Assembly: GCA_035501595.1 (NCBI GenBank)
Contig: DATJVX010000061.1
Coordinates: 66,233-130,232, forward strand
Reading direction: 5' to 3'
From: Casimicrobiaceae bacterium
GTDB taxonomy: Bacteria; Pseudomonadota; Gammaproteobacteria; Burkholderiales; Casimicrobiaceae
Length of the DNA stretch: 64,000 bases
Shown here: positions 13,329 through 43,781 of the stretch, piece after piece
Position numbering within the stretch: the first letter of the stretch is position 1
How the letters are laid out: every line of letters begins with the position of its first letter
Made by a program: the position numbers and the translations under genes
The notes under the pieces: model-generated
Seen by the model: the letters and a program-made list of their open reading frames with translations, nothing else
Database searches by the model: none
Told to the model about the DNA's origin: nothing

Positions 13329-13379
13329 CGGCGCCGGGCCGCCGATGCGCGGGCCCAGCGGCTTCACGGCCCCGAGGGC

Positions 13380-15122: not shown

Positions 15123-15581
15123 GGACTCGAACCCGCTGATCCGTCAGCCAAATGGTCTCATAGGAAAGGCAAAACCGTTTCGTCAGGCTTTATTGCCGTA
15201 CCGGCTTCGAAAGGGCGCTGCGCCTGGGCGGAAACTCTTGGCGAATACCTTCCAGGCCGCGGGGCCTCGGGCCGCCGCGCGCACTCGGTCCGAGTCCGGT
15301 GAGCCGTCCAGGCCGGCACGGCGAGGTTCTGCGAGGCCGACGAGCGGGACTGCCGGGACGTCGTGCGGAAGGGCGCGAGATTCGTCCAAGCATGCAGCGC
15401 CCACGTCCATCTCGTGCGCAACGGAGTCCGCGATGTGCTGGTGCCGGTCGCCCCGCAGATCCTTCCGGAGGGCGCAGCGAGGCGCGACGTGCTGGCGCCG
15501 CCTGCGAATGACCCGTCTTTCCGGTAGCGGCCCGCAAACCAACCCGCCGACGGGCGATCGTCGACTCGGACAGGAAGGGCG

Positions 15582-15985
15582 ATGCGAACGAATCTTGCGC
15601 TGCGCTGCCTGCTGAGGGCTCTCTTGCCGGCCGTCCTGGTCGCGGCGGATGCCCCCAGGCCGTCAACATCGACTCCGGGTTCACGGGCGCCTGGTACGAT
15701 CCGGCGCAGAGCGGCCACGAATTGTTCGTGGAGGTGCTGAACAACAATGCTTTCCTGGCCTGGTGGTTCACGTTTGATCCAACCGGCACCCAGCAGAGCT
15801 GGTTCGGCGGCGTCGGCACCTACAGCGGCAACACCGCGGTCATCAACCAGGTGATCCAGACGACGGGGGGACGCTGGATTCCCTTCTTCGATCCGAGCAG
15901 GCTCACGCTGGTTCCCTGGGGCACGCTCACCTTCACCGACTGCAACGACGGCCGAGTCGACTTCAATTCGCCCGTTCCGAGCTAG
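15582..15985 (+). pseudogene. frameshifted or truncated secreted repeat-domain protein (GxWYDP...WFTFD family)
   Basis: ATG 15582, preceded by GGAAGG, encodes signal peptide MRTNLALRCLLRALLPAVLVAADAP in frame 3. The domain AVNIDSGFTGAWYDPAQSGHELFVEVLNNNAFLAWWFTFDPTGTQQSWFGGVGTYSGNTAVINQVIQTTGGRWIPFFDPSRLTLVPWGTLTFTDCNDGRVDFNSPVPS is in frame 2. The switch occurs at a C5 run (15649-15653). The track lists only 15722..15985. Confidence 0.45.
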
Positions 15986-16291
15986 GGAACCGGCAGCATG
16001 CTAGACGCCCGCCGGAGCGGCGTTCCGTGCTACGACGAGCCGACTCGACAGATCCACGGCATGGCGCCATGGGGCGGCCGGACCGGCCTCTGGTATGCGA
16101 TCGGCACCAAGCAGTGACTCGCGAGAGCACGTGATCCCTCGGTCTCGACGAGGTTGACGACATCGCAGAGTGTCGCCGACACTCGTTTCGTCGCTTCGGA
16201 GCGCCTGACGGTGCGCTGATCCGCACGCGGATTCGGGCCACGCGCCGCGCCTCGACCGCGTCCCGGGGTAAAATCCGGCTTTTGCGCCACG

Positions 16292-17140
16292 GTGGCGCCT
16301 TTCTGCCCGGTGCCGGACCTCCAATCCACCATCGAAGCCGCCTGGGAGCGACGCACGGAGCTCGCCCCGCAATCCGCGCCCGCGGAGGTCCGCGAAGCGG
16401 TCGAGGCGACCATCGCGGAGCTCGATGCCGGCCGATTGCGCGTCGCCGAGAAGCGAGACGGGCGCTGGGCGACGCACCAGTGGCTCAAGAAGGCGGTGCT
16501 GCTGTCGTTCCGCCTGGCCGAGAGCGTGCCCATCGGACTGGCGGCGCCGGGCGCGCCGTTCCGCTTCTACGACAAGCTGCCCACCAAGTTCGCCCGCTTC
16601 GACGACAAGGCCTTCGCCGAAGCGGGCGTGCGCGTCGTGCCGCCGGCGGTCGCACGCCGTGGCGCGTACATCGCACGCAACGTGGTGCTCATGCCGTCGT
16701 ACGTGAACATCGGCGCCTACGTCGACGAGGGCACGATGGTCGATACCTGGGTGACGGTCGGCTCGTGCGCGCAGATCGGGCGCAACGTCCACCTCTCGGG
16801 CGGCGTCGGGATCGGCGGGGTGCTTGAACCGCTGCAAGCCAACCCCACCATCATCGAAGACAACTGCTTCGTCGGCGCGCGCTCCGAGGTCGTCGAGGGC
16901 GTGATCGTCGAGGAGAACTCGGTGCTGGGCATGGGCGTGTTCATCGGTCAGAGCACCAAGATCTACAACCGGGCCACCGGCGAAGTGAGCTACGGGCGGG
17001 TTCCGTCCGGCTCGGTGGTCGTCGCGGGCAGCCTGCCCTCCGGCGATGGGGGCTGCCAGCTCTACTGCGCGGTGATCGTGAAGCAGGTCGACGCCAGGAC
17101 GCGGGCGAAGACCGCCATCAACGAGCTCCTGCGCGCCTAG
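16292..17140 (+). CDS. dapD: 2,3,4,5-tetrahydropyridine-2,6-dicarboxylate N-succinyltransferase
   Basis: 282 aa: [15 protein letters not shown]..., hexapeptide-repeat region [43 protein letters not shown] 16292 listed; in-frame GTG 16310 (VPDLQSTIE) is an alternative. TAAAAT box at 16269-16274. Confidence 0.93.
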
Positions 17141-22091: not shown

Positions 22092-25304
<3,213 letters not shown>

Positions 25305-25323
<19 letters not shown>

Positions 25324-28300
25324 GGCGCGGACGCGCCCGGGCTCGTGGAAGCGAGCCGCAGCGCGTCCGCCAAACCCTCGATCGTCGCGTGTGCGAGAAA
25401 CAGCTCGAGCGGCACCTCCAGGTGCCGCGCGCTGCCGACCGTGCCGAGCATCCGCATCGCGAGCAACGAGTCGCCGCCCAGGTCGAAGAAGTGATCGCCG
25501 ATGCCGATCCGCGGGATGCGCAGGAGCTCCTGCCAGATATCGGCGAGCTCGCGTTCCAGCGCATCGCGCGGGGCCACGTAGCCGCCGGCGCGCCGCTCGG
25601 GGGCCTCGGGCACCGGCAACGCCGCATAGTCGATCTTGCCGTTGGCCGCGCGCGGCAGCGAAGCGAGCGTGACGATGGCCGCCGGGACCATGTAATCGGG
25701 GAGCGACCGGCGCAACTGCCGGCGCAGCTGATCGGTCCCCAGGTCGGAGCCGTCGGCAACGACGTAGGCGATGAGCCTGCGCGCCTCGCCCGCCGCGCCA
25801 TGTCCGACGACGGCGGCATCGCGGACCTGCGGCAGGGCGCGCAAGGCCGACTCGACCTCGGCAGGCTCGACGCGGTAGCCGCGGATCTTGATCTGGCTGT
25901 CGGCCCGGCCGAGGAACTCGACGTTTCCGTCGGGGAGGTAGCGTCCCAAGTCGCCGGTGCGGTAGAGCCGGTCGCCCGGCCGGTCGCTGAACGGGTCGCG
26001 CACGAAGCTCAGCGCCGTCAGGTCCGGCCGGTTGCGGTAGCCGAGCGCCACGCCGCGCCCGGCGATGCAGATCTCGCCGGGCACGCCCACGGGAACGGGA
26101 TGGCCGTAGGGGTCGAGCACGTGGATGCGCACGTTGGCGATCGGACGGCCGATCGGAACGGTCGCGAGCGGCCGGTCGCCCGCGGTCTCGGCGTCGAAGA
26201 TCGTCGCGGTGCATGTCGCCTCGGACGGTCCGTAGGCGTTGCACCACCGCACGCGCCGTCCCACGCGCGCCCTCCAGGCCGCGAACGCCTCCGGGCGCAC
26301 CGTATCCATCCCTGAGACCACCACGCGCAGCGAATCCGGGAGCGGAGCTGCGCCCGGTGCGGTCATGGTCTCGACCCACTCGTGCCAGTAGGCGCTCGGG
26401 ATCCCCGTTATCGTCACCCGGCGGCTGGCCACGAAGCGCAGGAACTGGGCAATGGAGATGAGCTGCGAATCCGGTCGCAGGACGGCGGCGCCACCGGAGA
26501 CGAGAACCGGGAACAGGTCGGCGATCAGGACGTCGGCGCTGAGCGAGACGAACTGCAGCCTCCGGTCTCGGGGCGAGACCGCGTAATGCTCGGCGAGCGC
26601 CAGCGTATGGTTGGTGAGCGCGCCGTGCGGGACCTCGATTCCCTTCGGCCGCCCGGTCGACCCCGACGTGTAGACGACGTAGGCGAGCTGCTGCGCTCCG
26701 ACGCGGACGTCCAGCCGCGCGGCAGTCTCCCGCGCGATCGCTTCGCGCTCCGCGTCGAGCAGGATCGTCGTCGCCCGCGCCTCGCCCAGGCGCGCCGAGA
26801 GCGCCTGCGTGGTGATCGCACAGGAAACAGCCGCGTCCCGGAGGATGCCCTCGAGGCGCTCGGGAGGATGCCCGGGATCGAGCGGAAGGTACGCGCAGCC
26901 CGCCTTGAGGATGCCGAGGAGCGCCGCCACGAGCTCGGGCGTCCGAGGCAGGCACAAGGCGACGAGAGCCTCGCGCTCGACGGCGCGCCCGCGCAGGTAC
27001 CGGGCGAGCTGATTGGCGCGACCATCGAGCTCGCGGTAGCTCAGGCTGCCCGCCGTAGACTCCACGGCGAGCGCCTCGGGTGTGCGCGCGGCCTGACGCT
27101 CGAAGAGCTCGTGGACGCCGCAGTCCGCCGGATAGTCCCGCGCCGTGTCGTTCCACTCGACCACGATCCGCCGCCTTTCGCTTGGGGAGAGCATCTGCTG
27201 CTCCCGGATCGGCCGGTGCAGGCCGTCGATCGCGCTCTCGAGCAGGTTGCGCAGATGCTCCAGCATCGCGGCGATCGTGGCTGCGTCGTAGTGCGAGCGC
27301 GCGTAGGCGATCTTGAGCGCGAGCTCCGGGCCTCCGAAGCAGGCGAGCGTGAGCGGGTGTCCCGGCGTCGATCGGCGGGCGAAGCTGCGCGTCGACCAGC
27401 CGCGGTCCTCGTGCAGCAGGGCATCGAGCGTGGCGTGCTCGAAGACCACCAGCGTCGACATCGCGCGCTCCGCGCGCGAGCCCCTGCCTCCGCGATGGAT
27501 GGCGGCGAGCGGCAGCCACGCGTGCGGACGCATCGCGAGCCATTGCGCCCGCAATCCGTCGAGCCAGGGCGCGAGCGCCATCTCCGGCTCGACCCGCAGC
27601 CGCATCGGCACGGTGTTGATGCACAGCCCCACGATGTCCTGCGACTCGTCGCGGCGATCCCCGCGCAGGGCGAGCGTCGTGTCGAAAATCACGTCGGTCT
27701 CGCCGCTGTAGCGGCTCAGAAGCTGCGCCCAGGCGCCCAGCAGAAGCGTGTTGAGCGTGAGGCCCTGCTCCCGCGCGATGCGCCGCAGTGCGTCGGTCGA
27801 CTCCCGCCCGAGCGTCAGCTCCGCAGTCGCCGAGCCCTCGTCCCTGCCGTCGTCCTTGCCCCTCTGCGAGCGCGGACGCTCCACCGGCAGCCGGGTCGGC
27901 GCGGCGAAGCCTTCGAGCGCCGCGCGCCAGAATGACTCGGCCGCCGCCGCGTCCTGGCGTCCGAGCCAGTCGATGTAGCCGCGATACGCGCGGGCCGCGG
28001 GGAGCGCGAGGTCACGCCCCGCGAGGCGCGCATCGTAGAGATCGAAGAGCTCCCTCAGCACGATGCGGATGGAGCGGCCGTCCAGCAGCGCGTGATGGTA
28101 GGTCCAGAGCAGGCGATAGTGCGCATCGGCGAGCTGGAGCAGCGCAAATCGCATCGGCGGCGAATCGAGCGCGAATTCCCGCTGCCGGTCCGCGTCGAGA
28201 AAGGCATCGAAGCGCGATTCCTGTTCGGCGGGCGGGCCGCCGCGCCAGTCGAGATGCGCCCAGGAAATCGCGGCGTGCGAGCGGACTTCCTGCACCGGGT

Positions 28301-28535
28301 CGCGGTCGATGCGAAAGCTCGTCCTGAGGATCGCGTGCCGCGCGACGATGGTTCGCCAGGCGTGCTCGAGCTGGGCCGGCTGCAGCCGCTCGCGCAAGTC
28401 GCAGATCGCCTGCTGCACGTACGCACCGGAACCCGGCGCGGACAGGCTGTGGACCAGCATCTCGCTCTGCATCGGCGCGAGCGGATACGCGTCCTCGACA
28501 CCGGAGTCCGCCGCGAGGGTTCGAGGCTCAGCCAT
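25305..28535 (-). CDS. single-module non-ribosomal peptide synthetase, domain order C-A-T, no thioesterase or reductase
   Basis: 1076 aa. C domain: YPLAPMQSEML, HHALLDGRS (HH codons 28092-28097). A domain: LSYRELDGRANQLA, YVVYTSGSTGRPKG, NAYGPSE, YRTGDLGRY, GRADSQIKIRGYRVE, NGKIDYAAL. T domain: FFDLGGDSLLAM (Ser codon 25467-25469). The protein ends about 40 aa after the carrier Ser. Confidence 0.93.
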
Positions 28536-29418
28536 GCCCCGGCACCCTGCGGCGCGCCCGGTAGGTCGCGATGGGGCAACGATCGCCCATCTCGTAGTCG
28601 AGGTAGCGCGTCTCCCGGTGATCGAAGAACTCGCCCATCACCCGCTCGATCTCGCTGACGTCCGGGAACGTCAGGCGCGAGGTCTTGCCTTCGTAGAGAT
28701 AGATCATTTCCACCGTCTCGCGCTGCCAGCCCGTCATCGCCAGGAGCCGATCCATGTCCACGCGCGCGCGCTTCCAGGCGGCGAGCACGTCGGCGACTGC
28801 CACGCCCGCCTCCACGCGCTCCTGCAATGCCGCGGCGAGCCTGAACTTGAAGGCGTGGAAGCTCCGGATCCGGTTCGCGAGGAGATCGTCGAATACCGCC
28901 TCTGGGGTCTCGCGCTCGGCGGGGCGCACGAAGAAGCGGCTGATGACGATCCCGCCGTCGGTCAGCGCTTCACGGCCAGCGGCGGCCAGCGCTCGATAGC
29001 CTGCCGGATAGTCGAGCGGCGCGAAGTTGCCGTCGCCGATCACGACGTCGTGACGGCCTTCGCCGCGGTAGCAGAACCAGTCGACCAGGGCCGCGCGGCG
29101 CAGTCCGGGCACATCTCCGGGCCACACCAGGTCGATCATCGCCTGCGACTTGTCGATGGCGAGCAGCCGCGTTCCCTTAGGCCACGACATCGCGGCGATC
29201 TCGGGCGTGACACCCCACAGGAGAACCTCGAGCGATTCGCCGCGGGCATCGGCGAACGCGTGGACGATCTCCCGCACGACCCGGACGTCCGCGGCGGAAG
29301 GCCGCAGCGGCGGCCCGTAGAGATCCCACTGGTGGGCGACATCGCTGCCCCAGTACGGCGCCTGGGGATCCTGCGTGGCGGGCGCCTCCGGAGCCTCGTC
29401 GTCAGGGCGGGCGGACAT
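28528..29418 (-). CDS. class I SAM-dependent methyltransferase-like protein (degenerate motif I)
   Basis: 296 aa: EVLLWGVTPEIAAM ... DVVIGDGNF ... LTDGGIVISRFF fits a Rossmann methyltransferase fold of the LGVTPE subtype. 8-nt overlap with the NRPS start and 1-nt gap after the upstream OMT stop. Confidence 0.65.
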   Translation of the reverse strand: MSARPDDEAPEAPATQDPQAPYWGSDVAHQWDLYGPPLRPSAADVRVVREIVHAFADARGESLEVLLWGVTPEIAAMSWPKGTRLLAIDKSQAMIDLVWPGDVPGLRRAALVDWFCYRGEGRHDVVIGDGNFAPLDYPAGYRALAAAGREALTDGGIVISRFFVRPAERETPEAVFDDLLANRIRSFHAFKFRLAAALQERVEAGVAVADVLAAWKRARVDMDRLLAMTGWQRETVEMIYLYEGKTSRLTFPDVSEIERVMGEFFDHRETRYLDYEMGDRCPIATYRARRRVPGHG

Positions 29419-29419
29419 G

Positions 29420-30466
29420 TCACGTCCGAGCTTGCGCGCTGTCGCGCGCGGCGACGATGATCTCCGCGCCGGGTCGGTGGCCTGCCAGCGAATCGCGGAT
29501 CTCGAAGCCCTCGGAGCGCAGGAGCGATCGATATTCCTCTGCCGTGCGCTCCCGGCCGCCGAGCATCACCATCATGTGCAGATCGAGCATGGCCAGGGGC
29601 ACCGAGGGGCGCGCTCCTTCCACGATCGTGTTCTCGACCACGAGCAGCACGCTCGAGGCCCCCATCGCGTCGCGGCAGCGGCGCAGGATCGTCGCACAGT
29701 CGCGGTCGCTCCAGTCGTGCAGGACGTAGCGCAGCACGTAGGCGTCGCCCCCCGCCGGGACCGCATCGAGGAACGACCCGCCCGCGACGCGGCAACGGTC
29801 GAGGACGCCTTCGGCCGCGAGCAGGGCTCGCGCCTGCTCGACGACGTGCGGCTGGTCGAACACCACGCCCGTCGCCCCGGGGTAGCGCCGGAGAATCTCC
29901 GCCATGAGCGCACCGCTCCCTCCGCCCACGTCGACGACCACGCGGCAGCCGGAGAAGTCGTACGCGGCCAGCACCGAGCTGCGGCCCCGCGCTTCCTGAT
30001 CGCCCATCGCGCGATTGAACGAAGCGTCGAGCTCGGGATGCGCCCTGCGGTGCTCCCAGACGCTCATCCCGAACGCGGCGGGAAACGCGGGCTCGCCGGT
30101 CCGCACGGCCTCGCCGAGCCTGCTCCAGGCCGGCAGGTACTCCTCGCCGACGAGCAGCGCACGCTCGCGGACGCCTGCGTGCGAATCGAGCAGCACGCGA
30201 CCCAGGGAGGTGAGGCTGAAGCCGCTCGCGCCCGGCGCCACGATGTCGAGAGCCTCGAGCGCCCGCAGGAACCGGAGCAGCGACGACTCATGTGCGCCGA
30301 CGCGCTTCGCGAGCTCCTCCGCGGTCAACGGGCCCGCGGCGAGCCGATCGAGAACCCCGAGCTCGACCGCCGCCGCGATCACGCAGCTCGGGCGAAAGCC
30401 GTGCAGCAGGCTCAGCAGCCGTGCGGCGAGCGCCTCGGTCGATCCCGACCCGACGGCGGTCTGCAT
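29420..30466 (-). CDS. family-2 O-methyltransferase (dimerisation domain plus Methyltransf_2)
   Basis: 348 aa: N-terminal winged-helix dimerisation region (AAAVELGVLDRLAAGPLTAEELA), SAM motif VVDVGGGSGAL, and YVLRYVLHDWSD with the catalytic His. Confidence 0.9.
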   Translation of the reverse strand: MQTAVGSGSTEALAARLLSLLHGFRPSCVIAAAVELGVLDRLAAGPLTAEELAKRVGAHESSLLRFLRALEALDIVAPGASGFSLTSLGRVLLDSHAGVRERALLVGEEYLPAWSRLGEAVRTGEPAFPAAFGMSVWEHRRAHPELDASFNRAMGDQEARGRSSVLAAYDFSGCRVVVDVGGGSGALMAEILRRYPGATGVVFDQPHVVEQARALLAAEGVLDRCRVAGGSFLDAVPAGGDAYVLRYVLHDWSDRDCATILRRCRDAMGASSVLLVVENTIVEGARPSVPLAMLDLHMMVMLGGRERTAEEYRSLLRSEGFEIRDSLAGHRPGAEIIVAARDSAQART

Positions 30467-31980
30467 CAGGCATCCAGCCCGAAGAACTGGCGGATGCGTC
30501 TTACGAGCTCACTCGCGCGCGTGCCGGTAGCCTGCGCCCGGGCTTCCGCCGAGAGCGACGCGAGCGTCGCGTCGTTAGCCGCCTGTCGGGCCGCCACGGT
30601 CCGCGACATCGCCTCGGCCAGCTCGGGGCGAGCCTGGATGATCGCCTCGAAGCCACTCTTGTCGAGGCCGTAGCAAAGCACCTCCGATTCCGCGATGATC
30701 GTCGCGGTTCGCGCCTGACCCGTGAGAAGCCCCATCTCGCCGAAGAACGCCGGGGCCGTGAGCTTGGCGAGCAGCTTGCGCCCTTTGCCGTGCTCGCCGT
30801 CACGGAAGATCGCGACCACGCCGCGCGCGAGGATGTACAGCGAATCGGAGGGCTCGCCCTGCCGGGTCACGACGTCGCCGGGCGCGAGCGGCGCGATGCG
30901 GAGCTGGGTCGCCAGCGCGTACGTCTCGTCGTCGGTGAGCGGCGCAAACAGCTCGAGCGAGCGCAACAGCGTCACGCGCGACTTCTGCTCGCTCTCCCCG
31001 AGCATGGCCGCGAGCCGGCGCGCCGAGTGCAGGTAGAGTTCCTGGCGCGAGACCGGAAACTCCATGCCCGCCCGCCCCAGCGCGGCGTAGACGTGAAGGC
31101 GCACCTGCGAGTCGGTCTCGAGGTAGGACTTCATGTCGGTGAGCCAGTAATAAACGATGTACTTGATCGCGCTCGCGTCGAACTCCGCGCACACGCAGCG
31201 CGCCGTCGGCTTCGTCGCCATCAGCGGCACTTCCATGCGCTCGATCGCGGAGGCGACGACCGCGAGCACCTGCCCGGGCGTCCATTCGTAGCCGATGCTG
31301 AACTCGATCGACCGCCGCCACGCGACGCGCTCGTCTCCCCGCCGGCCGAGCAGCGTAACCTTGCTCTTCATGAGTTCCGCGTTCGGGATCACGATGGTCA
31401 CGTTGGTAATCGTCGCGATCGCGGTGTAGCGCCAGCGGATCGAGACGACCTCTCCCATCACGCCTTCGATCTCGATCCAGTCCCCGATCCGGCAGGTGTT
31501 GTCGAGCTGCAGCGAGATGCCGCCCATCAGGTTGCCGAGGGTAGCCTGAGCCGCAAAGGCGATGACTGCGGTCAGCGCGCCCGCCGACACCGTGATCGCC
31601 GTGAGGTTCACGCCCATCGCGTTGAGGCGGAACAGCGCATAGACGACGATCGACACGAACATGCTCACTTCGGCCAGGATCCGCGGCACGGTGCGGCGCG
31701 CGAGCAGCACGTTGCCGAGGAAGGCGATCCAGACCTTGATGTTGCCCAGCGCGACGATGAACAGGCACAGCTCGCGCGGCAGCACCGCGATCGCGAGCTG
31801 CGGGGGGATCGGCGTGTAGCGGGTGAAGGCGGCGAGGCCGCTCAGGCCGAGGACGATGATGAACAGGGTGACGAGCGTCGAGCGCCGCAGCTCGGGCTTG
31901 AAGCGCATCGTGATCAGGCCCAGGAGCAGGGCAAACGCGCTGAACCCGAGCGCTTCCTGCAGCGTGATCGTCTCAACCAT
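30466..31980 (-). CDS. MscS-family mechanosensitive channel with C-terminal cyclic-nucleotide-binding domain (bCNG type)
   Basis: 504 aa: TM region plus MscS beta domain (IGDWIEIEGVMGEVVSIRWRYT), then a CAP_ED domain (GDVVTRQGEPSDSLYILARGVV...FFGEMGLLTGQARTATIIA). Its stop overlaps the OMT start by 1 nt (TGATG, 30464-30468). Confidence 0.9.
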   Translation of the reverse strand: MVETITLQEALGFSAFALLLGLITMRFKPELRRSTLVTLFIIVLGLSGLAAFTRYTPIPPQLAIAVLPRELCLFIVALGNIKVWIAFLGNVLLARRTVPRILAEVSMFVSIVVYALFRLNAMGVNLTAITVSAGALTAVIAFAAQATLGNLMGGISLQLDNTCRIGDWIEIEGVMGEVVSIRWRYTAIATITNVTIVIPNAELMKSKVTLLGRRGDERVAWRRSIEFSIGYEWTPGQVLAVVASAIERMEVPLMATKPTARCVCAEFDASAIKYIVYYWLTDMKSYLETDSQVRLHVYAALGRAGMEFPVSRQELYLHSARRLAAMLGESEQKSRVTLLRSLELFAPLTDDETYALATQLRIAPLAPGDVVTRQGEPSDSLYILARGVVAIFRDGEHGKGRKLLAKLTAPAFFGEMGLLTGQARTATIIAESEVLCYGLDKSGFEAIIQARPELAEAMSRTVAARQAANDATLASLSAEARAQATGTRASELVRRIRQFFGLDA

Positions 31981-32026
31981 CGACGGCCGTTTTCCCCTGA
32001 CCGACGGGAGGCGCCGGCCAGCGCGG

Positions 32027-32055
32027 ATTATACGGCCGGGCAGCGCATCTGCCGA
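32027..32055 (-). promoter_or_regulatory. putative sigma70 promoter TCGGCA-N17-TATAAT of the channel-MT-NRPS operon
   Basis: Minus strand: -35 TCGGCA (32055-32050), 17-nt spacer, perfect -10 TATAAT (32032-32027), 46 nt upstream of ATG 31980. Confidence 0.4.
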
Positions 32056-32104
32056 ATCACGCTAGAATGCTGCAGACCCGCAGCCAATACCGCGGTCCCC
32101 ACCG

Positions 32105-33769
32105 ATGCGCACCGGCGGCCGAATACTCGTCGACAATCTGCTCGCCCAGGGGGTCGACCTCGCGTTTTGCGTTCCCGGCGAGAGCTACCTCGCGGTGCTC
32201 GATGCGCTCTTCGACGTGCGCGAGCGGTTGCGGCTCATCGTCTGCCGGCAGGAAGGCGGGGCCGCGTACATGGCCGAGGCCTACGGCAAGCTGACCGGTC
32301 GCCCCGGCGTGCTTTTCGTGACCCGCGGTCCCGGAGCCTCGAACGCCGCGATCGGCATACACACGGCGATGCAGGATTCCACGCCCCTGGTGGCGTTCGT
32401 CGGGCAGATCGGCGGCGACGTCGTCGACCGCGAATCCTTCCAGGAGATCGACTACCGGCGCATGTTCGCGAGCGTGGCGAAATGGGCTGCGCAGATCGAC
32501 CGCGCGGAGCGAATTCCCGAGTACGTCGCGCGGGCGTTTCGCGTGGCGATGTCGGGTCGCCCCGGCCCGGTCGTCCTCGCGCTGCCCGAGGACATGCTCG
32601 TCGCCACCGCCGAGGTCGCAGATGCGCGACGCGTTGAGCCGGCGACGGTCCATCCCTCGGCCTCCCAGATGCGCGAGCTCACCTCGCTGCTGCGCGGCGC
32701 GAAGCGGCCGCTCGCGATCGCCGGCGGCAGCGGCTGGAGCGCGGAGGCCTGCGCGAATCTTGCGCGGTTCGCGGAGGCGAGCGCGCTCCCCGTCGCTTGC
32801 GCGTTCAGAAACCAGGACGTCTTCGACAACCGGCACCCCAACTACGCCGGCGACGTCGGCATCGGCATCAACCCGAGGCTCGCGGAGCGCGTGCGAGGCG
32901 CCGATGTCCTGCTGGTCATCGGCGAGCGGCTGGGCGAGATGGTGACGGGCGGCTATTCGCTCGTCGAGCCGCCGACGCCGAAGCAGACGCTGGTCCACGT
33001 CCATCCCGGAGGCGACGAGCTCGGCCGGGTGTATCAGCCCGCGCTTCCGATCGAGTCCAGCGTCGCGGCATTCTGCGCGTCGCTGACGACGATGGAGCGC
33101 ATCGACGCGTCGTCCTGGGCGGGCAGTGCGCAGCTCGCCCACGCGGCGTATCTCGAGTGGCAGACGCCGCGCCCGATGCCCGGTCCGGTCGACCTCTGGC
33201 AGGTCGTTGCCGCGTTGCGCGAGCGGCTTCCGGAAAATGCGATCGTCGCCAACGGCGCGGGCAACTACGTGAGCTGGTTGGCCCGGCTCTACCGCTATCC
33301 CCGGTATCGCACGCAGCTCGCGCCCTACAACGGATCGATGGGCTACGGAGTGCCCGCGGCGATCGCGGCGAAGGCCGTGCACCCCGACCGCGTCGTCGTC
33401 TCGTGGAACGGCGACGGCTGCTTCCTCATGAACGGGCAGGAGCTCGCGACCGCCGTGCAATACGGGCTGCCGATCGTCTTCGTCATCGTGGATAATGGCA
33501 TGTACGGAACCATCCGCATGCACCAGGAGCGCCACTACCCGAGGCGGGTCTACGGCACGGCGCTCGAGAACCCGGACTTCGCCGCGCTGGCGCGAGCCTA
33601 CGGCGCCGCCGGAGAGACCGTCAGCCGGACCGAGGAGTTCGCTCCGGCGTTCGAACGCGCCCTCGCTGCGAACCGCCCTGCCCTCCTGCATCTCGTCGTC
33701 GATCCGCAGGCGGTCACCATGAACGCCACCATCGACGATCTGCGCCGCCAGTCGGCCGCTCGAAGCTGA
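32105..33769 (+). CDS. thiamine-diphosphate-dependent enzyme, acetolactate-synthase large-subunit family
   Basis: 554 aa: N-terminal TPP pyrimidine-binding domain ([13 protein letters not shown]...TRGPGASNA), and the C-terminal TPP-binding motif [11 protein letters not shown]...[12 protein letters not shown]. The physiological substrate cannot be determined. Confidence 0.88.
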
Positions 33770-33783: not shown

Positions 33784-35628
33784 ATGGCCTCCGCCGACCT
33801 GCTCTCGGTGGCTTCGCTCTCGGTCGAGTTCCGCAGCTCCGAGCGCGTCGTCGCGGCGGTTCGGAACGTTTCCTTCACGGTCGGCCGGGGCGAGACGATC
33901 GCGATCGTCGGCGAATCCGGGTCCGGCAAGTCCGTGACCGCGCTGTCGCTGATGCGCCTCGTCGAGCACGGCGGAGGCACGATCACCTCGGGCAGCCTCG
34001 AGTTCCAGCGCCCGGGCGGCGAGCGCATCGACCTCGCGCGTGCCGACGGCGCGACCATGCGCGCAATCCGCGGCGCGGAGATCGCGATGATCTTCCAGGA
34101 GCCGATGACCTCGCTCAATCCGGTCTATACCGTGGGCGAGCAGATCGCGGAGTCCATTCGCCTGCACCAGGGCAAGGATCGATCCGCCGCGCGGCGCGGC
34201 GCGCTCGGCATGCTCGAGCAGGTTCGCATTCCCGAGGCGAGGCAGGTCCTCGATCGCTACCCGCACCAGCTCTCCGGGGGCATGCGCCAGCGAGTGATGA
34301 TCGCGATGGCGCTGTCCTGCCAGCCGGCGCTCCTGATCGCGGACGAGCCCACGACCGCTCTCGACGTGACGATCCAGGCGCAGATCCTGCAGCTCATCCG
34401 AGCGCTGCAGGACGAGATGCACATGGCGGTCATCTTCATCACCCACGACATGGGGGTGGTCGCCGAAGTCGCCGAGCGCGTCGTCGTCATGTACCAGGGC
34501 AGCAAGGTGGAGGACGGTCCGGCCGAGGCGATCTTCCACGCGCCCCAGCACGCCTACACGCGGGCGCTGCTGGCGGCGGTCCCGACCCTGGGCTCGATGC
34601 GAGGAACCGACAAGCCGGAGCGCTTCTCGCTCGTCGGCGCCGACGCCGGCATGTCCGGATCCGCGCCGACGCGGCCCGCCGTTCCCTCCACCGCTGCGCC
34701 GATTCTCCGCGTGCGCGGGCTCAAGACGGGCTTCGACCTGCCCTCCGGTTTCTTCGGCCGCGTGCACCGGCGCGTGCACGCCGTCGAGCAGGTCACGTTC
34801 GATTTGAACGCGGGCGAGACCCTCGCGCTGGTGGGCGAATCCGGCTGCGGGAAGTCCACCACCGGGCGTTCGCTCCTGCGGCTGGTCGACATCGACGCCG
34901 GCTCGATCGAATTCGGCGGCCGCGACATCGCCCGCCTCCCGGCCGACGAGCTGCGGCCGCTCCGGCGCGAGATCCAGATGGTGTTCCAGGATCCCTATGC
35001 GTCGCTCGACCCGCGGCTGACGGTCGGCTTCTCGATCGCCGAGCCGCTGTACGTCCACGACGCGGCGCGCGGCACGGAAGCCGACGCCCGCGTGGCGTGG
35101 CTGCTCTCGCACGTCGGACTCGCGCCGGAGCACGCGCAACGCTACCCGCACGAGTTCTCAGGCGGCCAGCGGCAGCGGATCGCCATCGCGCGCGCGCTCG
35201 CCCTGCAGCCGAAGATCATCATCGCCGACGAGGCCGTGTCGGCGCTCGACGTGTCGATCCGCGCGCAGATCGTCAACCTCATGCTCGATCTGCAGGCGGA
35301 GTTCGGCCTGTCCTATCTGTTCATTTCCCACGACATGGCGGTCGTCGAGCGCGTGAGTCACCGCGTGGCCGTGATGTACCTGGGGCAGATCGTGGAGATC
35401 GGCCCGAGGCGGGCCGTCTTCGAGGATCCCCGCCACCCCTATACCCGGAAGCTGCTCGCGGCCGTGCCGATCGCCGACCCCGCGCGACGGCAGCGAAAAA
35501 GGGAGTTATCATCCGACGAAATACCGAGCCCCGTGCGCGCCGTCGGCGACGAGCCGATCGTGCTTCCGCTGCAAGAAGTCGCTCCGGGACACTTCGTGGC
35601 CAAGCATCGCGTCGGCGGCGCCTATTGA
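33784..35628 (+). CDS. gsiA: fused double ATP-binding subunit of a peptide/glutathione ABC importer
   Basis: 614 aa with two Walker A sites ([16 protein letters not shown]) and two signatures ([16 protein letters not shown]). Same order as the E. coli gsiABCD operon. Confidence 0.88.
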
Positions 35629-35684
35629 CGGCTCCGCCCGTACCCGTCGACCTGTAGACGAATCGCCGAAACTGGAGAACCTGC

Positions 35685-37229
35685 ATGAAATCGCTTTTTC
35701 GCCTGCTTCTCGCTTCCGCCGCAGCCGTCGCGCTCCTCGCGGTCGCGCCGGCTTTCGCCAGCAAGGACGTCGTCTTCGCGGTCGCCTCGACGTTCACGAC
35801 CACCGACCCCTACGACGCGAACGACACGCTGTCGCAGGCGATGGCCAAGTCCTTCTACGAAGGGCTGTACGGCTTCGACAAGGACATGAAGATGATCCCC
35901 GTGCTGGCCGAGAGCTACGAGGTCAGCAAGGACGGGCTGGTCTACACCATCAAGCTCAGGAAAGGCGTGAAGTTCCACGACGGCACCGACTTCAAGGCCG
36001 ACGCGGTCAAGGTGAATCTCGACCGGGTGACCAATCCGGACAACCACCTCAAGCGCTACGGCCTCTACAACAACAACATCGCCAAGGTCGAGGTCGTCGA
36101 CGATTACACCGCGCGCATCACGCTCAAGACGCCGTTCTCGCCCTTCATCGCCCAGCTCGCCCATCCATCGACGGTGATGATCAGCCCCACGGCGCTCAAG
36201 CAATGGGGCAGCAAGGACATCGCGTTCCATCCCGTGGGTACCGGACCGTTCAAGTTCGTCGAATGGAAGCAGACCGACTACCTCAGGGTCGCGAAGTTCG
36301 ACGGCTACTGGAGGAAGGGCTATCCCAAGATCGATACGATCACCTGGAAGCCGGTCGTCGACAACAACTCGCGCGCGGCGCTGATGCAGACCGGAGAGGC
36401 GCAGTTCACGTTTCCGCTGCCCTACGAGCAGGCCGAGCTGCTCAAGACCAAGCCGGACCTGGAAGTCGTCGCCGCGCCGTCGATCGTGCTGCGCTACCTG
36501 TCGATGAACACCCAGAAGAAGCCGTTCGACAACGTCAAGGTGCGGCAGGCGATCGCGTATGCGATCAACAAGGAAGCGCTGGCCAAGGTCGCGTTCAACG
36601 GCTACGCCACGCCGGCGTTGGGCGTCGCGCCGCAGGGCGTGGAGTACGCGGTCAAGATCGGCGAATGGCCCTATGACCTCGCCAAGGCCAAGGAGCTGAT
36701 GAAGGAGGCCGGCTATCCGGACGGATTCGAGACCGAGCTGTGGTCGGCGTACAACCACACGACCGCGCAGAAGGTCACGCAATTCATTCAGCAGCAGCTC
36801 CAGCAGATCGGGATCCGGACCAAGATCACACTCCTCGAAGCCGGACAGCGGGTGGAGAAGGTCGAGAGCTGGCAGGATCCGGCGACGGCGCCGGTGCGTC
36901 TGTACTACGTGGGCTGGTCGACGTCGACGGGCGAGGCGGACTGGGCGCTGCGGCCGCTGCTCGACGGCGGTTCGTGGCCGCCGCGGCTCTTCAACACCGC
37001 GTACTACAAGAACCCTCAGGTCGACGCCGACATCAAGAACGCGCAGCTCACGACCAGCGACGCCGAGAAGGCGAAGCTCTACAAGGACGCGCAGGAAACC
37101 ATCTGGAAGGACGCGCCGTGGGCGCCGCTGGTCGTCGAGAAGCTGCTCTCGGCGCACAACAGGAAGCTCACGGGCGTCTACGTCATTCCCGATGCGTCGT
37201 TCAATTTCACCGAGGTCGATTTGCAGTGA
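35685..37229 (+). CDS. gsiB: family-5 periplasmic substrate-binding protein (glutathione/dipeptide type)
   Basis: 514 aa with signal peptide [25 protein letters not shown]. Strong resemblance along its length to GsiB/DppA-type binding proteins ([28 protein letters not shown]). RBS GGAGA 7 nt upstream. Confidence 0.9.
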
Positions 37230-37405
37230 CGCCTTCGTCCAAGAGCGGGCCGCGGAGCCGGCCCGCGATTGGAAGCCAATGCATCATCCCCGCGAACGCG
37301 GGGCTCCGGCGTCGTTCCCGGGATAAGTAGCGACGACACCGGGTCTACGCCTGCGCGGGGACGACCAAGCCTCGTCGAGCCACAGGCACCCGGCCGAACG
37401 CGCGC

Positions 37406-38326
37406 ATGCTCCCCTACCTCGTCAAGCGCCTGCTCGGGCTGGTCCCCACGCTGCTTCTCGTCGCGGTCCTGGTGTTCCTGTTCGTGCACCTGCTGCCCGG
37501 CGATCCGGCGCGGCTGGCGGCGGGGCCGGATGCGACGGCCGAGACGGTGGCGCTGGTGCGCCAGGATCTCGACCTCGACAAGTCGCTCCCCGAGCAGTTC
37601 GCGCGCTTCGCCTCCGGGGCGCTGCGTGGCGACCTCGGGCGCTCGGTGCGCACCAAGCGTCCGGTCTCGACCGAGATCGCCGAGCGCTTCTGGCCGACGT
37701 TCTGGCTTACCGTCGCCGCCATGGCCTGGTCGGTGACCTTCGGGATGGCGATCGGCATCGCGTCGGCGGTGTGGCGCAATCGCTGGCCCGACCGCATCGG
37801 CATGACCCTCGCCGTCTCCGGCATCTCCTTCCCGGCGTTCGCGCTCGGGATGGTGCTGATGCAGGTCTTCTCGGTCCAGCTCGGCTGGCTCCCAACCGTC
37901 GGCGCCGATACCTGGCGGCACTACATCCTGCCGTCGCTCACCCTAGGCGCGGCCGTCGCTGCGATCATGGCGCGCTTCACCCGCTCGTCGTTCGTCGACA
38001 TCTTGAAGGAGGACTACGTCCGGACGGCGCGAGCCAAGGGCCTGCGCGAGACCATCGTCGTGATCAAGCACGGCTTGCGCAACGCGCTCATCCCCGTGGT
38101 GACGATGATGGGGCTGCAGTTCGGCTTCCTCCTCGGCGGCTCGATCGTGGTCGAGGTCGTGTTCAACTGGCCGGGGATGGGACGGCTGCTCGTCGACGCG
38201 GTGGACATGCGCGACTATCCGGTGATCCAAGGCCTGGTGCTGCTGTTCTCGCTCGAGTTCGTCCTGATCAACCTCATCGTCGACGTCCTCTACGCGGTCA
38301 TCAATCCCGCCATTCGCTACCGATGA
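37406..38326 (+). CDS. gsiC: ABC transporter permease (DppB/GsiC type)
   Basis: 306 aa: [24 protein letters not shown]..., with the EAA-loop region [12 protein letters not shown]. Confidence 0.9.
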
Positions 38327-39924: not shown

Positions 39925-40944
39925 CTAGTCGTCGCTGGTCGCGCAGGCCACCGACGGCCCGAGCTTTTCCTTCGCCGCGGCGACCTGCGTGGTCTCGGGC
40001 AGCGCCACGCCGTTCTTGGCGGCGGTGATCTCGGCCAGGATGGAGATCGCGATCTCGGGCGGCGTGCGGCTGCCGATGTAGAGGCCGATCGGCCCGTGCA
40101 GCCGCTCGATCTGCCTGGGTGTCAGCTCGAATTCCTCGAGCCGCCGGCGGCGCTTGGCGTTGTTGGCGCGCGAGCCCAGCGCGCCGACGTAGAACGCGCG
40201 CGACTTGAGCGCCTCCATCAGCGCGAGATCGTCGAGCTTCGGGTCGTGGGTCAGCGCGACCACGGCGCAGCGCTCGTCGAGCTGCATGTCGATCACGGTA
40301 TCGTCGGGCATCGTGCGCACCAGCGCCACGCCCGGGACGTCCCAGGTCTCGACGTACTCCTCGCGCGGATCGCACACCGTGACCTGGTAGTCGAGGCCGA
40401 CGGCGATCTGCGCCAGATACTTGGAGAGCTGCCCCGCGCCGATCACCAGCATGCGGTAGCGCGGTCCGTGCACGGTCGTGAGCACCTGGCCGTCGAATGC
40501 GAGACCGTCGGTCGCGCGCCCCGCCCCGAGGCGAACCTCGGCCGTATCGAGATCGAGGCTGCGGGCGACGAGCCGGCCGGAGCGCACCTGGTCGAGCAGC
40601 TCGCCGATGCGGCTGTTCGCGCCGAGCGGCTCCAGGACGAGCTGAATCGTGCCGCCGCAGGGGAGCCCGAACCTCCGCGCATCGTCGGCAGACACGCCGT
40701 AGGTCACCGCGCGCGGCTCGGTGACGTACGCGCCCTCGCGCCGCGAGCGCTCGACGATGTCGTCCTCGATGCAGCCGCCGGACACCGAGCCGACGACGTG
40801 GCCGTCGTCGCGCACCGCCAGCAGCGCGCCCGGCGGCCGCGGAGAGCTGCCCCAGGTCTTCACGACCGTGACCAGCAGCACGCGGCGGCCCGCGGCGAGC
40901 CATTCCGCGCTCTTGCGCAGCACTTCGAGATCGACGCTATCCAT
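39925..40944 (-). CDS. XdhC/CoxI-family molybdoenzyme maturation factor
   Basis: 339 aa: VVKTWGSSPRPPGALLAVRDDGHVVGSVSGGCIE (XdhC_CoxI N-domain) plus a Rossmann-like C-domain (MLVIGAGQLSKYL). Confidence 0.9.
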   Translation of the reverse strand: MDSVDLEVLRKSAEWLAAGRRVLLVTVVKTWGSSPRPPGALLAVRDDGHVVGSVSGGCIEDDIVERSRREGAYVTEPRAVTYGVSADDARRFGLPCGGTIQLVLEPLGANSRIGELLDQVRSGRLVARSLDLDTAEVRLGAGRATDGLAFDGQVLTTVHGPRYRMLVIGAGQLSKYLAQIAVGLDYQVTVCDPREEYVETWDVPGVALVRTMPDDTVIDMQLDERCAVVALTHDPKLDDLALMEALKSRAFYVGALGSRANNAKRRRRLEEFELTPRQIERLHGPIGLYIGSRTPPEIAISILAEITAAKNGVALPETTQVAAAKEKLGPSVACATSDD

Positions 40945-41015
40945 GAGGAGGATCGGTTCGGGAGGTCAATCCCTGGGACCGACGAAGCGCGCTCAGGGTT
41001 CGTCCGAAGTCCATT

Positions 41016-41579
41016 CTACCCTCGTCGCGTCAGCCAGTAGATCGCCACGGCGACGATGACGGCGATCGCGAGCCCGAGGCGCCAGACCAGCGACCGGGAG
41101 GCCGCGAGAGGCGCCTGAGCCGGCTGCGCCGCTGCCGCGGCCCCGCCGACGCGCTCGACGAAGCGCGCGAAAAAATCCTCGGCGACCTTCGCTGCCGCCG
41201 CGTCGACGAGGCGCGAGCCGATCTGCGCCAGCTTGCCGCCGACCTGTGCAGTCGCGCTGTAGTCGATGCGCGTTCCGCCGTCCTCGGTCACGAGTGCGAT
41301 CTTGGCCTCGCCGCGAGCGAAGCCCGCCGCGCCGCCCTGCCCCTCGAAGCTCATGCGGTACGACGACGGCGGGACGACGTCGGAAAGCGCGATCCGGCCG
41401 TTGAACTTCGCGGAAACGGGACCGACCCGGGCCGTCATCCCGACCTTGAACTCGTGATCCGAAGTGCGCTCGACCGATTCGCAGCCAGGAATGCATGCCT
41501 TGAGCGTTTCCGGATCGTTGAGCGCGGCCCAGGTCGCTTCGATCGGGGCCGGGACGGTGCGGTGACTGATGAGCTGCAT
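41016..41579 (-). CDS. CoxG-family SRPBCC protein with C-terminal membrane anchor
   Basis: 187 aa: MQLISHRTVPAPIEATWAALNDPETLKACIPGCESVE..., with tail WRLGLAIAVIVAVAIYWL. Confidence 0.88.
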   Translation of the reverse strand: MQLISHRTVPAPIEATWAALNDPETLKACIPGCESVERTSDHEFKVGMTARVGPVSAKFNGRIALSDVVPPSSYRMSFEGQGGAAGFARGEAKIALVTEDGGTRIDYSATAQVGGKLAQIGSRLVDAAAAKVAEDFFARFVERVGGAAAAAQPAQAPLAASRSLVWRLGLAIAVIVAVAIYWLTRRG

Positions 41580-41592
41580 CGAAGGTGCCTCC

Positions 41593-43754: not shown

Positions 43755-43781
43755 GGCGGAAGGCTGCGAAGAGACGGCCCG

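Follow-up and report, generated by a model that had tools for sequence, protein, structure and literature searches.

Why should a gene for a bCNG-type channel stand at the head of what looks like a small nonribosomal peptide synthetase (NRPS) operon? The question is raised by a locus in a 64-kb stretch of Casimicrobiaceae DNA (hereafter the window), for which a sequence-only reading had proposed a methylated (N-acyl-)amino-acid metabolite whose synthesis or release is tied to a cyclic-nucleotide-gated channel. The host clade consists of uncultured soil Betaproteobacteria, the nearest genomes being Casimicrobiaceae-like MAGs. The explanation that we favour, with a probability of about 65%, is that the locus represents a three-gene accessory NRPS cassette inserted in the short spacer behind a conserved channel gene.

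Layout and expression of the locus

The features of the locus and of its flanks are given below in window coordinates.

24372-25323, plus strand: PrmC/HemK-like methyltransferase gene (MTS, PrmC_N), backbone flank by synteny
25305-30465, minus strand: three-gene accessory cassette, whole extent, flanked by the stop codon of the channel gene and the 3′ end of the PrmC-like gene, which is convergent with the NRPS gene
25305-28535, minus strand: NRPS gene (C-A-T), 1076 aa, stand-alone module without release domain
~25359-25550, minus strand: T domain of the NRPS
~25635-27104, minus strand: A domain of the NRPS
~27165-28496, minus strand: C domain of the NRPS
28528-29418, minus strand: MT-like gene, 296 aa, hub gene of the cassette
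29420-30466, minus strand: family-2 SAM-dependent O-methyltransferase (OMT) gene, 348 aa, first gene of the cassette
30466-31980, minus strand: bCNG-type channel gene, 504 aa, conserved backbone gene outside the cassette
30638-30665, minus strand: weak promoter-like site TCGACA-N16-GATCAT (9/12 matches), within the channel gene, towards its 3′ end
32027-32055, minus strand: sigma-70-like promoter TCGGCA-N17-TATAAT (10/12 consensus matches), upstream of the channel gene
32105-33769, plus strand: ThDP-dependent enzyme gene, divergent from the channel gene, backbone flank by synteny
33784-38326: peptide ABC transporter, following the ThDP-dependent enzyme gene

The four minus-strand reading frames were found at the positions first described for them, with the GC3 of real genes (0.87-0.92 in all four) and dN/dS ratios of 0.14-0.35, which indicate purifying selection. 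Their junctions also read as claimed: the OMT ATG overlaps the channel TGA (TGATG), a 1-nt gap separates the OMT and MT-like genes (TGAcATG), and the MT-like and NRPS genes overlap by 8 nt (ATGGCTGA). The 3′ ends of the convergent NRPS and PrmC-like genes overlap by 19 nt. The TGATG overlap is kept in five of the six other cassette-bearing loci (L010, L083, L086, L087 and L114).

Two promoter-like sites were observed in the region against 0.3 expected from shuffles, and the only strong one is the TCGGCA-N17-TATAAT element upstream of the channel gene, present as reported. No terminator-like site was found in the four-gene region. Because of this absence, the conserved TGATG overlap and the single strong promoter-like site, the lineage of the window very probably transcribes the four genes together, and to that extent the proposed operon stands. 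The strong site is the promoter of the channel gene itself and the probable driver of the whole four-gene transcript; the weak site may act as an internal promoter driving the cassette independently. Lacking its own strong promoter and starting with an ATG that overlaps the channel TGA, the cassette would probably owe its expression to read-through from the channel promoter and to translational coupling. The channel would be a neighbour and a source of transcription, not a component of biosynthesis or export.

Pfam scans covered 34 ORFs of the window (the four genes above and 30 others), and the others have housekeeping functions only, while tblastn of the 64 kb with TE, C, A, T, MbtH and Sfp queries gave no match beyond the NRPS. 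These searches bear out the claimed absence of a TE, R domain, second module and MbtH; a divergent PPTase could sit in the few small or unscanned ORFs that remain.

Insertion site and distribution of the cassette

The channel protein is built of N-terminal TM segments (the TM3-like one being AAQATLGNLMGGISL), an MscS pore helix and beta-domain, and a C-terminal CNBD with a canonical phosphate-binding cassette (PBC), FGEMGLLTGQARTA; Pfam assigns the MscS beta-domain and cNMP_binding. It shares this pore, beta-domain, CNBD and PBC with the bCNG channels, which the passages of PMC13591265 citing Caldwell et al. 2010 and Malcolm et al. 2012 describe mainly from cyanobacteria, and whose physiological role is unknown (PMC13591265). 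Unlike the channels reviewed there, that of the window belongs to the conserved backbone of a betaproteobacterial lineage from soil, and no finding ties it mechanistically to the cassette. No paper was found in the literature that connects a bCNG-type channel with an NRPS cluster.

The channel gene was found in 80 related loci, mostly without the cassette. Channel homologs of 46-86% identity occur at 68 metagenome loci that could be evaluated; PrmC lies directly downstream in 56 of these, at a median distance of ~62 bp, four carry the cassette and eight show another arrangement. The cassette-bearing loci of this survey all fall in one clade, which also holds the empty sites L080, L081/82 and L085; L080 (86% identity) is the closest relative of all. 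Homology to the empty-site relatives ends at the channel stop codon and restarts at the 3′ end of PrmC, where the empty sites have a spacer of only ~17-60 nt. The promoter element, GATTCGGC...CGTATAATCC, is conserved 5′ of the channel gene in cassette-free and cassette-bearing relatives alike. The ancestral chromosomal backbone thus comprises the channel gene with its promoter and the two flanks, and the cassette is a three-gene accessory unit, present or absent at one fixed site. A cluster that opens with the channel, as the sequence-only reading described it, is not a conserved layout, and the occurrence of the four-gene set in related genomes, a check which that reading had named, speaks against it.

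The cassette also occurs elsewhere. The trio of OMT, MT-like and NRPS genes is found without the channel in at least five other genomic contexts (L001/L002, L005, L012, L160/161, L165 and L166). The MT-like and NRPS genes are adjacent in 15 of the 70 genome loci with an MT-like homolog, spanning Betaproteobacteria, Acidobacteriota, Verrucomicrobia and Lentisphaerales, and in three cyanobacterial loci an NRPS lies within 3-6 kb of the MT-like homolog. The specificity code D-x-A-G-[IV]-G-A-x-T-K is conserved across Betaproteobacteria, Acidobacteriota and Lentisphaerales. The core of the cassette is the MT-like gene together with an NRPS module of this code, paired in several phyla.

Encoded enzymes and predicted product

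The OMT was correctly placed in family 2: it is of the aromatic type with intact catalytic residues (Pfam Methyltransf_2, 1.3e-55, and Dimerisation; conserved motifs VVDVGGGSG, VLHDW and GGRERT). Its nearest solved relatives are 6c5b, CalO6 and MmcR (E 1e-64 to 1e-67, full length), with which it shares the SAM motif and the catalytic His/Glu, but its partner is an NRPS module instead of a pathway to aromatic polyketides or phenazines. Of the two methyltransferases claimed, the OMT is confirmed, and the second is supported by distant annotated homologs and its predicted fold only, as the MT-like protein has no match in Pfam or NCBIfam. It has 459 homologs, and its family shows an invariant GVTPE where the Gly-rich motif I would be. 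The AF2 model (pLDDT 92.6) has SAM MTases as top fold matches (prob 1.0, TM 0.5-0.68), and its motifs were mapped onto PE N-methyltransferase. By its modelled structure the protein represents an unnamed family with the class I methyltransferase fold, and since the canonical Gly-rich SAM loop is lacking, methyltransferase activity stays putative.

The NRPS is a single C-A-T module as described, with Condensation at aa 14-457 (HHALLDG at 147-153), AMP-binding and AMP-binding_C at aa 478-967 and PP-binding at aa 996-1059 (GGDSL, Ser1023); the chain has 1076 residues, 53 of them beyond the carrier Ser, against the ~40 first estimated. All core catalytic motifs, those of the C domain included, are intact and there are no frameshifts.

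The A-domain code DVAGVGACTK has no match to an assignable specificity code. The nearest solved pocket is that of ApnA A1 (PDB 4D4G; 83.7 bits against at most 47.6 for others), with D235, V236, G301 and K517 in common. In the anabaenopeptin synthetase this domain is Arg/Tyr-bispecific, with E204 and S243 as polar anchors (PMC11253843). In the window domain these are Ala and Gly, and position 331 is Thr, so that a larger, apolar pocket and a different substrate are predicted. The domain would probably load a bulky, uncharged and probably aromatic alpha-amino acid.

The C domain carries the motif VEDAYPLAPMQ, and its best solved matches are PvdL (276 bits), McyB C1 (263 bits) and the SrfA-A starter C (181 bits), with LgrA (56 bits) and TycC (84 bits) far lower. 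In sequence, DCL domains are closer to it than verified starter C domains, so a carrier protein with its gene elsewhere, bearing a D-aminoacyl or peptidyl group, could be the donor. The starter-like reading, in which the domain initiates and accepts an acyl group, is nevertheless reasonable, since homologous modules stand first in a longer NRPS or are supplied with an acyl group by a preceding A-T without Asp235. The module resembles SrfA-A-type initiation modules in having C first and no upstream module in cis, and serrawettin SwrW is a single-module C-A-T-TE synthetase; it differs from both in its best-matching DCL domains (the PvdL C after an E-like domain, and McyB C1), in lacking a TE and acyl donor genes, and in having two dedicated methyltransferases. 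The aryl-capping EntF and MxcG, C-A-T-(TE/R), likewise take the donor from a separate carrier protein. Over the whole NRPS they score 402 and 496 bits, far under the NCBIfam equivalog cut-offs (2300-2400); at E<=1e-10 the C-domain search did not pick up that of EntF, and genes for aryl-acid activation or an aryl carrier are absent from the window, as are a TE and an R domain.

Homologous modules occur as C-A-T, C-A-T-TE, C-A-T-C... and A-T + dock-C-A-T-TE. A TE follows in L160 and in Acidobacteriota, and the module is fused to further modules, standing first, in L165, L166 and L168; in L015 a separate A-T with a TubC-type docking domain precedes it. These fused and docked forms, the DCL-like C domain and the missing TE would also suit a dissociated initiation or acceptor module of an assembly line encoded elsewhere, which alone makes no free product. 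We consider this unlikely: Pfam detected no docking domain at either end of the window NRPS, no partner lies within the 64 kb, and TE-less C-A-T cassettes of the same length are kept in three genomic contexts (the window clade, L001 and L005), which suggests a self-sufficient unit.

For the accessory cassette we propose that the N-terminal C domain, of a DCL/starter-like clade, probably N-acylates the loaded residue, the acyl or aroyl group coming as a thioester in trans, and that both methyltransferases probably tailor the substrate or the product. As the NRPS has no TE, the product would probably be freed by a trans-acting hydrolase or passed to another synthetase. The product itself would probably be a bulky amino acid carrying an N-acyl group and methylation.

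Relation of the cassette to the channel and to cNMP signalling

Genes related to cNMP, a class defined post hoc, lie within ~7 kb of the cassette in 4 of ~8 independent contexts (raw count). The CNBD channel adjoins it in the window clade; elsewhere there is a class III cyclase 3.5 kb upstream, with a multi-GAF protein immediately downstream (L001), a response-regulator cyclase 2 kb upstream (L161) and a Crp-type CNBD regulator 6 kb upstream (L005), so that, leaving the window clade aside, ~63 flanking genes include some 3-4 of this kind. This recurrence is suggestive of a link to cNMP signalling, and the adjacency to the channel is maybe not purely accidental. That the cassette is wired to such signalling, by control or feedback, and that its landing behind a CNBD channel was selected, is however rather improbable, as no cNMP genes lie by the Pfam-annotated L012 cassette, by L164, among the few flanking genes on the short contigs L165 and L166, or in any Acidobacteriota, Verrucomicrobia or Lentisphaerales locus examined, and the tblastn control was of low sensitivity.

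A single functional unit of all four genes, with the channel taking a mechanistic part in synthesis or release (acting, say, as an export valve), is very unlikely. The retained TGATG overlap, the single strong promoter-like site with no terminator and the unknown role of bCNG channels would allow it. The distribution largely refutes it, as 56 of the 68 evaluable relatives have the channel and the same promoter without the cassette and the cassette lives without any channel gene in other phyla too; the literature offers no such pairing, and nothing was found in support of a tie to channel gating. A truncated, decaying and non-functional leftover of a C-A-T-TE or multi-module cluster, which the relatives with a TE or further modules and the NRPS 3′ end abutting and overlapping PrmC might suggest, can hardly be reconciled with the intact motifs and reading frame and with a dN/dS of 0.26-0.34 over ~1060 codons in comparison with four orthologs, some of them non-syntenic and of equal length.

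On the favoured explanation of an inserted accessory cassette, the apparent "channel-led antibiotic operon" reflects the landing site of the cassette, and the four genes are no conserved system.

Channel locus and cassette insertion site

The four open reading frames were recovered exactly where the sequence-only reading had placed them:

30466-31980, minus strand: predicted bCNG-type channel (MscS with a cyclic-nucleotide-binding domain, CNBD)
29420-30466, minus strand: O-methyltransferase (OMT)
28528-29418, minus strand: methyltransferase-like protein of 296 aa (MT-like)
25305-28535, minus strand: NRPS with C, A and T domains

Their GC3 is 0.87-0.92 with GC1 above GC2, as in real genes (the window has about 70% GC), and the junction sequences TGATG, TGAcATG and ATGGCTGA were confirmed. 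The TCGGCA-N17-TATAAT site was likewise found (32055-32027, minus strand); it lies in the spacer from which the channel gene and a ThDP-enzyme gene diverge. Scanning of 25000-32300 gave 2 promoter-like sites, this one included, against 0.3 from shuffled sequences, and no terminator-like site.

Judged from its sequence, the channel is of the bCNG type, as the pore helix, the beta-domain and the CNBD were all recognised. The N-terminus has several hydrophobic segments, the MscS part was detected in Pfam (PF00924, 3.1e-16, and PF21082), residues 71-318 match the MscS and YnaI structures and the pore-lining helix is MscS TM3-like (AAQATLGNLMGGISL). The C-terminal CNBD (PF00027, 2.2e-21, residues 365-450) matches CNBD structures of PKA and PKG and has a canonical phosphate-binding cassette (pattern FGE...R[ST]A; FGEMGLLTGQARTA at 414). 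The bCNG channels form an established family for which a role in physiology has yet to be found (PMC13591265).

The genomic setting of the channel was surveyed by a scan of metagenome contigs with the channel protein, which gave 80 loci of 46-86% identity, 68 of them evaluable downstream. A common backbone was found in all 80: Opp ATPase <- ThDP enzyme <-> channel -> <- PrmC <- M20 <- T2SSE.

Genes downstream of the channel (68 evaluable loci)
PrmC directly downstream, median gap about 62 bp: 56/68
Cassette (OMT, MT-like and NRPS): 4/68
Neither PrmC nor cassette (more distant loci): 8/68

The channel-led, channel-coupled operon proposed by the sequence-only reading is not borne out by these counts as a conserved system. 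Even the nearest relative of all (L080, 86%) is an empty site, in which PrmC directly follows the channel. On alignment to empty sites the homology ends at the channel stop codon and restarts at the 3′ end of PrmC; the spacer that is filled by the cassette measures only about 17-60 nt in the empty sites, and in the window the 3′ end of the NRPS gene overlaps PrmC by 19 nt. All the cassette-bearing loci fall in one clade of the neighbour-joining tree of channel proteins, together with the empty L080, L081/82 and L085, and thus the cassette is a presence/absence islet at a fixed site. No long direct repeats, integrase or transposase were found at its boundaries.

The distribution of the cassette was surveyed in the neighbourhoods of MT-like homologs and in a scan of 185,579 species genomes, and all loci were then scored by tblastn. 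Close relatives were confined to L010, L011 (Casimicrobiaceae) and L012, three MAGs of uncultured Betaproteobacteria from soil. Channel and cassette stand together only at loci syntenic with the window (L003/L087, L010, L011, L083, L086, L114 and L167), and OMT, MT-like and NRPS genes without any channel gene were found in L001/L002, L005, L012, L160/L161, L165 and L166. Co-occurrence of the four genes in related genomes, which had been set as a test of the operon, therefore did not hold, the cassette occurring without the channel in at least five other contexts. The flanks of L012 carry TerB, DUF2189, an EgtD-like MTase, a phosphonate ABC transporter, an HNH endonuclease and an MFS transporter (Pfam), and L166-L168 are short contigs from which no usable context was gained. 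The locus consists of a three-gene accessory cassette behind a core channel gene, and the channel is probably no component of the pathway.

The promoter element of the channel (GATTCGGC...CGTATAATCC) is kept upstream of the channel gene in the empty sites too, and therefore the promoter is older than the cassette. The TGATG overlap between the channel stop and the OMT start is present in the window and in 5 of the 6 other cassette-bearing loci examined. The cassette is probably dependent on the promoter of the channel; a weak internal promoter-like site at 30665-30638 may drive it instead.

Two further features were observed at this site. In the 5′ leader of the channel (31978-32026, minus strand), which runs from the -10 element to the start codon, an inverted repeat (CUGGCCGGCG...CGUCGGUCAG) was seen that recurs in relatives with altered sequence; the stability of the hairpin is no higher than that of shuffles (z = 0.11), and the leader has no Rfam match, the scan having given only a sub-threshold chance hit. 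In L086, a locus with the same insertion site and TGATG junction, positions 2193-2546 encode an OMT fragment with 49% identity to the window's OMT over 116 aa, against 66-69% in other cassette-bearing relatives; it may represent another version of the cassette, or an N-terminus that evolves fast.

The remaining window encodes housekeeping and other functions (DapD, Map, GlnD, Def, a phosphorylase, the T2SSE ATPase, PrmC, a peptide ABC transporter, an ImuB/DnaE2 mutasome, Mo-hydroxylase genes, a PQQ dehydrogenase, a TonB receptor and two-component systems). The mutasome (SOS mutagenesis) cassette spans 43858-49310:

48477-49310, minus strand: ImuA′-like ORF, no Pfam match
47033-48472, minus strand: ImuB-like Y-family polymerase
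43858-47304, minus strand: DnaE2-type Pol III alpha

Molybdenum-hydroxylase (CoxL/CoxM-type) genes with CoxG, XdhC and a MoxR-type AAA ATPase lie in two blocks (39925-43805 and 50598-54114), with the mutasome cassette and a Memo-like gene between them. An M20 peptidase gene is indicated at about 23255-24415 on the plus strand by GC3 frames and by synteny (M20 between T2SSE and PrmC in relatives); the Pfam scan of this interval, which covered wrong-frame overlapping ORFs only, gave no M20 match. The minus-strand gene at 6072-7877 encodes a protein of 601 aa whose C-terminal domain is an Asp/Asn beta-hydroxylase and whose long N-terminal part is without family match.

The two methyltransferases

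The OMT is of the family-2 (plant-type) kind: it has the dimerisation domain PF08100 and the Methyltransf_2 domain PF00891, a SAM motif and the catalytic His/Glu residues. Its nearest solved relatives are the aromatic small-molecule O-methyltransferases 6c5b, CalO6 and MmcR (E 1e-64 to 1e-67), with which the motifs VVDVGGGSG, VLHDW and GGRERT line up.

The 296-aa protein has no match in Pfam or NCBIfam, and a search of its sequence against PDB returned only noise. Of its 459 homologs at E<=0.001, those close to it are unnamed, and a class I SAM methyltransferase annotation is given to some of the distant ones. An AlphaFold (AF2) model built on the family alignment (pLDDT 92.6, pTM 0.87) gave more than 1000 PDB structure matches at E<=0.001, and the top-ranked ones are almost all annotated as SAM MTases; its neighbours include PE and phosphoethanolamine N-MTs, CysG, NodS, CcbJ and NovO (prob 1.0, TM 0.5-0.68). 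The Gly-rich motif I (GxGxG) is absent, and in its position stands G69-V-T-P-E73, invariant in 31/31 aligned family members, along with many invariant Trp, Pro and Asp residues, the conserved post-I Asp89 and the conserved Asp113/Asp129. The family profile aligned GVTPE to the GVGTG of PE N-methyltransferase with the post-I Asp kept, at a marginal E = 0.1 which is usable for motif mapping only. The structural neighbours and the profile alignment therefore uphold the term "second methyltransferase" at the level of the fold, which is Rossmann-like, while the SAM loop is atypical. As modelled, the protein has the class I SAM-dependent MTase fold and is a putative enzyme.

Many more distant members of the MT-like family are solitary or have only an OMT as partner. 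L024, L063, L074 and L164, from other phyla and one betaproteobacterial contig, have MT-like and family-2 OMT genes with no adjacent NRPS, and therefore the two methyltransferases may have a small-molecule substrate in common and act on it without the NRPS. In L018, a Verrucomicrobia MAG, a single ORF of 2293 aa (9935-16816) has MT-like N-terminal to A(Thr code DFWNIGMVHK)-T-C-A-T-TE; this apparent fusion, if real, argues that the MT-like protein works directly with the assembly line.

The NRPS module and its relatives

The condensation domain (PF00668, 7.7e-81, residues 14-457) opens with VEDAYPLAPMQ and has the HHxxxDG active-site motif intact (HHALLDG at 147-153). The adenylation domain (PF00501 and PF13193) has all the core motifs (YTSGSTGRPKG, NAYGPSE, YRTGDL and NGKID) and the alpha-amino-acid anchors Asp235 and Lys517. 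It is followed by a carrier domain (PF00550, 9.3e-14; GGDSL with the phosphopantetheinyl Ser1023), which completes an NRPS elongation or initiation module, and the protein ends at residue 1076, 17 aa past the PP-binding match. Pfam scans and tblastn agree with the sequence-only reading that no TE, R, terminal C, MbtH or second module occurs elsewhere in the 64 kb; tblastn of the window gave no further match to TE, C, A, T, MbtH or Sfp queries, a result that is weak for Sfp in particular. Chain release in cis or nearby, as in a self-contained pathway, was not found, and relatives have a TE or a further C domain.

Specificity codes of the modules (Stachelhaus positions read against a PheA fragment; the reference self-check returns DAWTIAAICK)
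Window: DVAGVGACTK
L001: DAAGIGSCTK
L005: DVASIGACTK
L011: DVAGIGACTK
Acidobacteriota: DFAG[VI]GACTK, DVAGIGAPTK, DMAGIGAPTK, DMAGVGAPTG (L034)
L015 module 2: DVGGIGAGTK

From the similarity of these codes across phyla, the MT-like-linked modules appear to load one and the same substrate. By pocket segment the closest solved A domain is ApnA A1 (83.7 bits, against at most 47.6 for any other), which uses the polar residues E204 and S243 as anchors to position Arg and Tyr (PMC11253843); the window A domain differs in having Ala and Gly at these positions. The substrate is inferred to be a large, uncharged and probably aromatic alpha-amino acid.

Solved matches of the window C domain
PvdL, C domain after an E-like domain in the same chain: 276 bits
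McyB C1: 263 bits
BacC: 191 bits
SrfA-A starter C: 181 bits
SrfA-C: 178 bits
LCL domains: 56-88 bits
RzmA-type (7c1k): 45 bits

The top matches follow E domains in their assembly lines. The name DCL applies to a C domain that comes after an E domain, and starter C to one that stands first (PMC11546977). The best solved matches, set against the low LCL scores, therefore probably place the window C domain by sequence in the joint DCL/starter-like clade, and it stands in the position of a starter (lipo-initiation) C as the first domain of the protein.

Architectures of the homologous modules
C-A-T: window clade, L001, L005, L167
C-A-T-TE: L160 (with OMT); Acidobacteriota (without OMT)
C-A-T-C...: L165, L166, L168
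Separate A-T without Asp235 (GYWSFSLGAK), then TubC-dock-C-A-T-TE: L015

A further C follows the homologous module in L165, L166 and L168, so it is module 1 there; in L015 the donor to the C domain appears to be the A-T protein, whose A domain is without Asp235. The variety of architectures among homologs of the same code indicates that the TE-less form is a derived minimal variant. That it is a remnant was rejected, dN/dS being 0.26-0.34 for the NRPS and 0.14-0.35 over all four genes, non-syntenic comparisons with L001 and L005 included. A replacement of the missing TE by the OMT was also rejected, as L160 has OMT, MT-like and C-A-T-TE, and L015 has both too.

The NRPS gene directly follows the MT-like gene in Acidobacteriota/Bryobacterales (L017, L019, L022, L023, L031, L034, L036, L069 and L078), and in Verrucomicrobia (L018) and Lentisphaerales (L015) as well. 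The neighbours in Bryobacterales are unrelated housekeeping genes (aldose epimerase, MsrB, GMC oxidoreductase), and no extra pathway genes were found there. Cyanobacterial NRPSs near MT-like genes (L032, L035) have the Pro-type code DVQFIA[HQ]VVK, so these modules are unrelated and were rejected as relatives.

Fuller clusters were observed around the MT-like gene at two loci. L015 (7787-18484) encodes an OMT, a DHQ-synthase-like enzyme, MT-like, a fusion of a cytidine-deaminase-like domain with a class I MT, an A-T protein (GYWSFSLGAK, a non-amino-acid code) and dock-C-A-T-TE; L077 (3025-10786) encodes A(GFWSISMGEK)-T-deaminase-MT as one protein, C-A, a Zn-ADH and MT-like. To our knowledge, no deaminase-MT unit attached to NRPS modules has been described.

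Cyclic-nucleotide neighbours and the proposed model

Three further independent contexts, unrelated to the window, have genes related to cyclic nucleotides (cNMP) close to the cassette:

L001 4175-5452 and 14289-16628: class III cyclase upstream and multi-GAF protein downstream of the cassette
L161 624-1772: response-regulator cyclase (class III)
L005 1176-1964: Crp-type CNBD regulator

The cassette may be wired to cyclic-nucleotide signalling, with the production of its putative methylated metabolite, derived from an amino acid, controlled by, or the metabolite acting on, cAMP/cGMP. This reading draws on the presence of a CNBD protein or class III cyclase within a few kb in about half of the independent contexts of the cassette, and on the translational coupling of the cassette to a CNBD-gated channel in the window lineage. 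No such genes were found in L012, L164, L165, L166 or any non-betaproteobacterial locus; the enrichment control was done by tblastn only and is of low sensitivity. The recurrence of cNMP neighbours favours the sequence-only reading in part, is suggestive only, and we consider the wiring unlikely.

As an accessory cassette, the three genes would depend for their expression on read-through and on translational coupling. The A domain would load a bulky neutral amino acid, which the N-terminal C domain would acylate. The donor would be supplied in trans and may be an acyl or aroyl group on CoA or ACP, or else a carrier protein from another locus. The precursor or the product would be tailored by the two methyltransferases, and release would require a trans-acting hydrolase or a partner synthetase.

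A literature search returned nothing tying an MscS/CNBD channel to an NRPS cluster and nothing on this gene set. The locus is an orphan NRPS cassette of a known kind, whose unusual features are the Pfam-less GVTPE MT partner, one conserved unassigned code across phyla and the TE-less minimal form.

That a gene belongs to a biosynthetic unit is not shown by tight packing and translational coupling; here such a reading was overturned by comparison of genomic contexts. The recurrent cNMP neighbours offer a lead that can be tested, and a cNMP-wired cassette, if real, would give a first physiological handle on bCNG channels. For genome miners it is a clean, small target (about 5.2 kb, three genes, heterologously expressible) from Betaproteobacteria of soil that are uncultured. 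The cassette is also a probable example of accessory genes gaining expression by insertion precisely at a core gene's stop codon, and it defines a unit in which a Pfam-less GVTPE family of methyltransferase fold is specifically partnered with a one-code NRPS module in at least four phyla.
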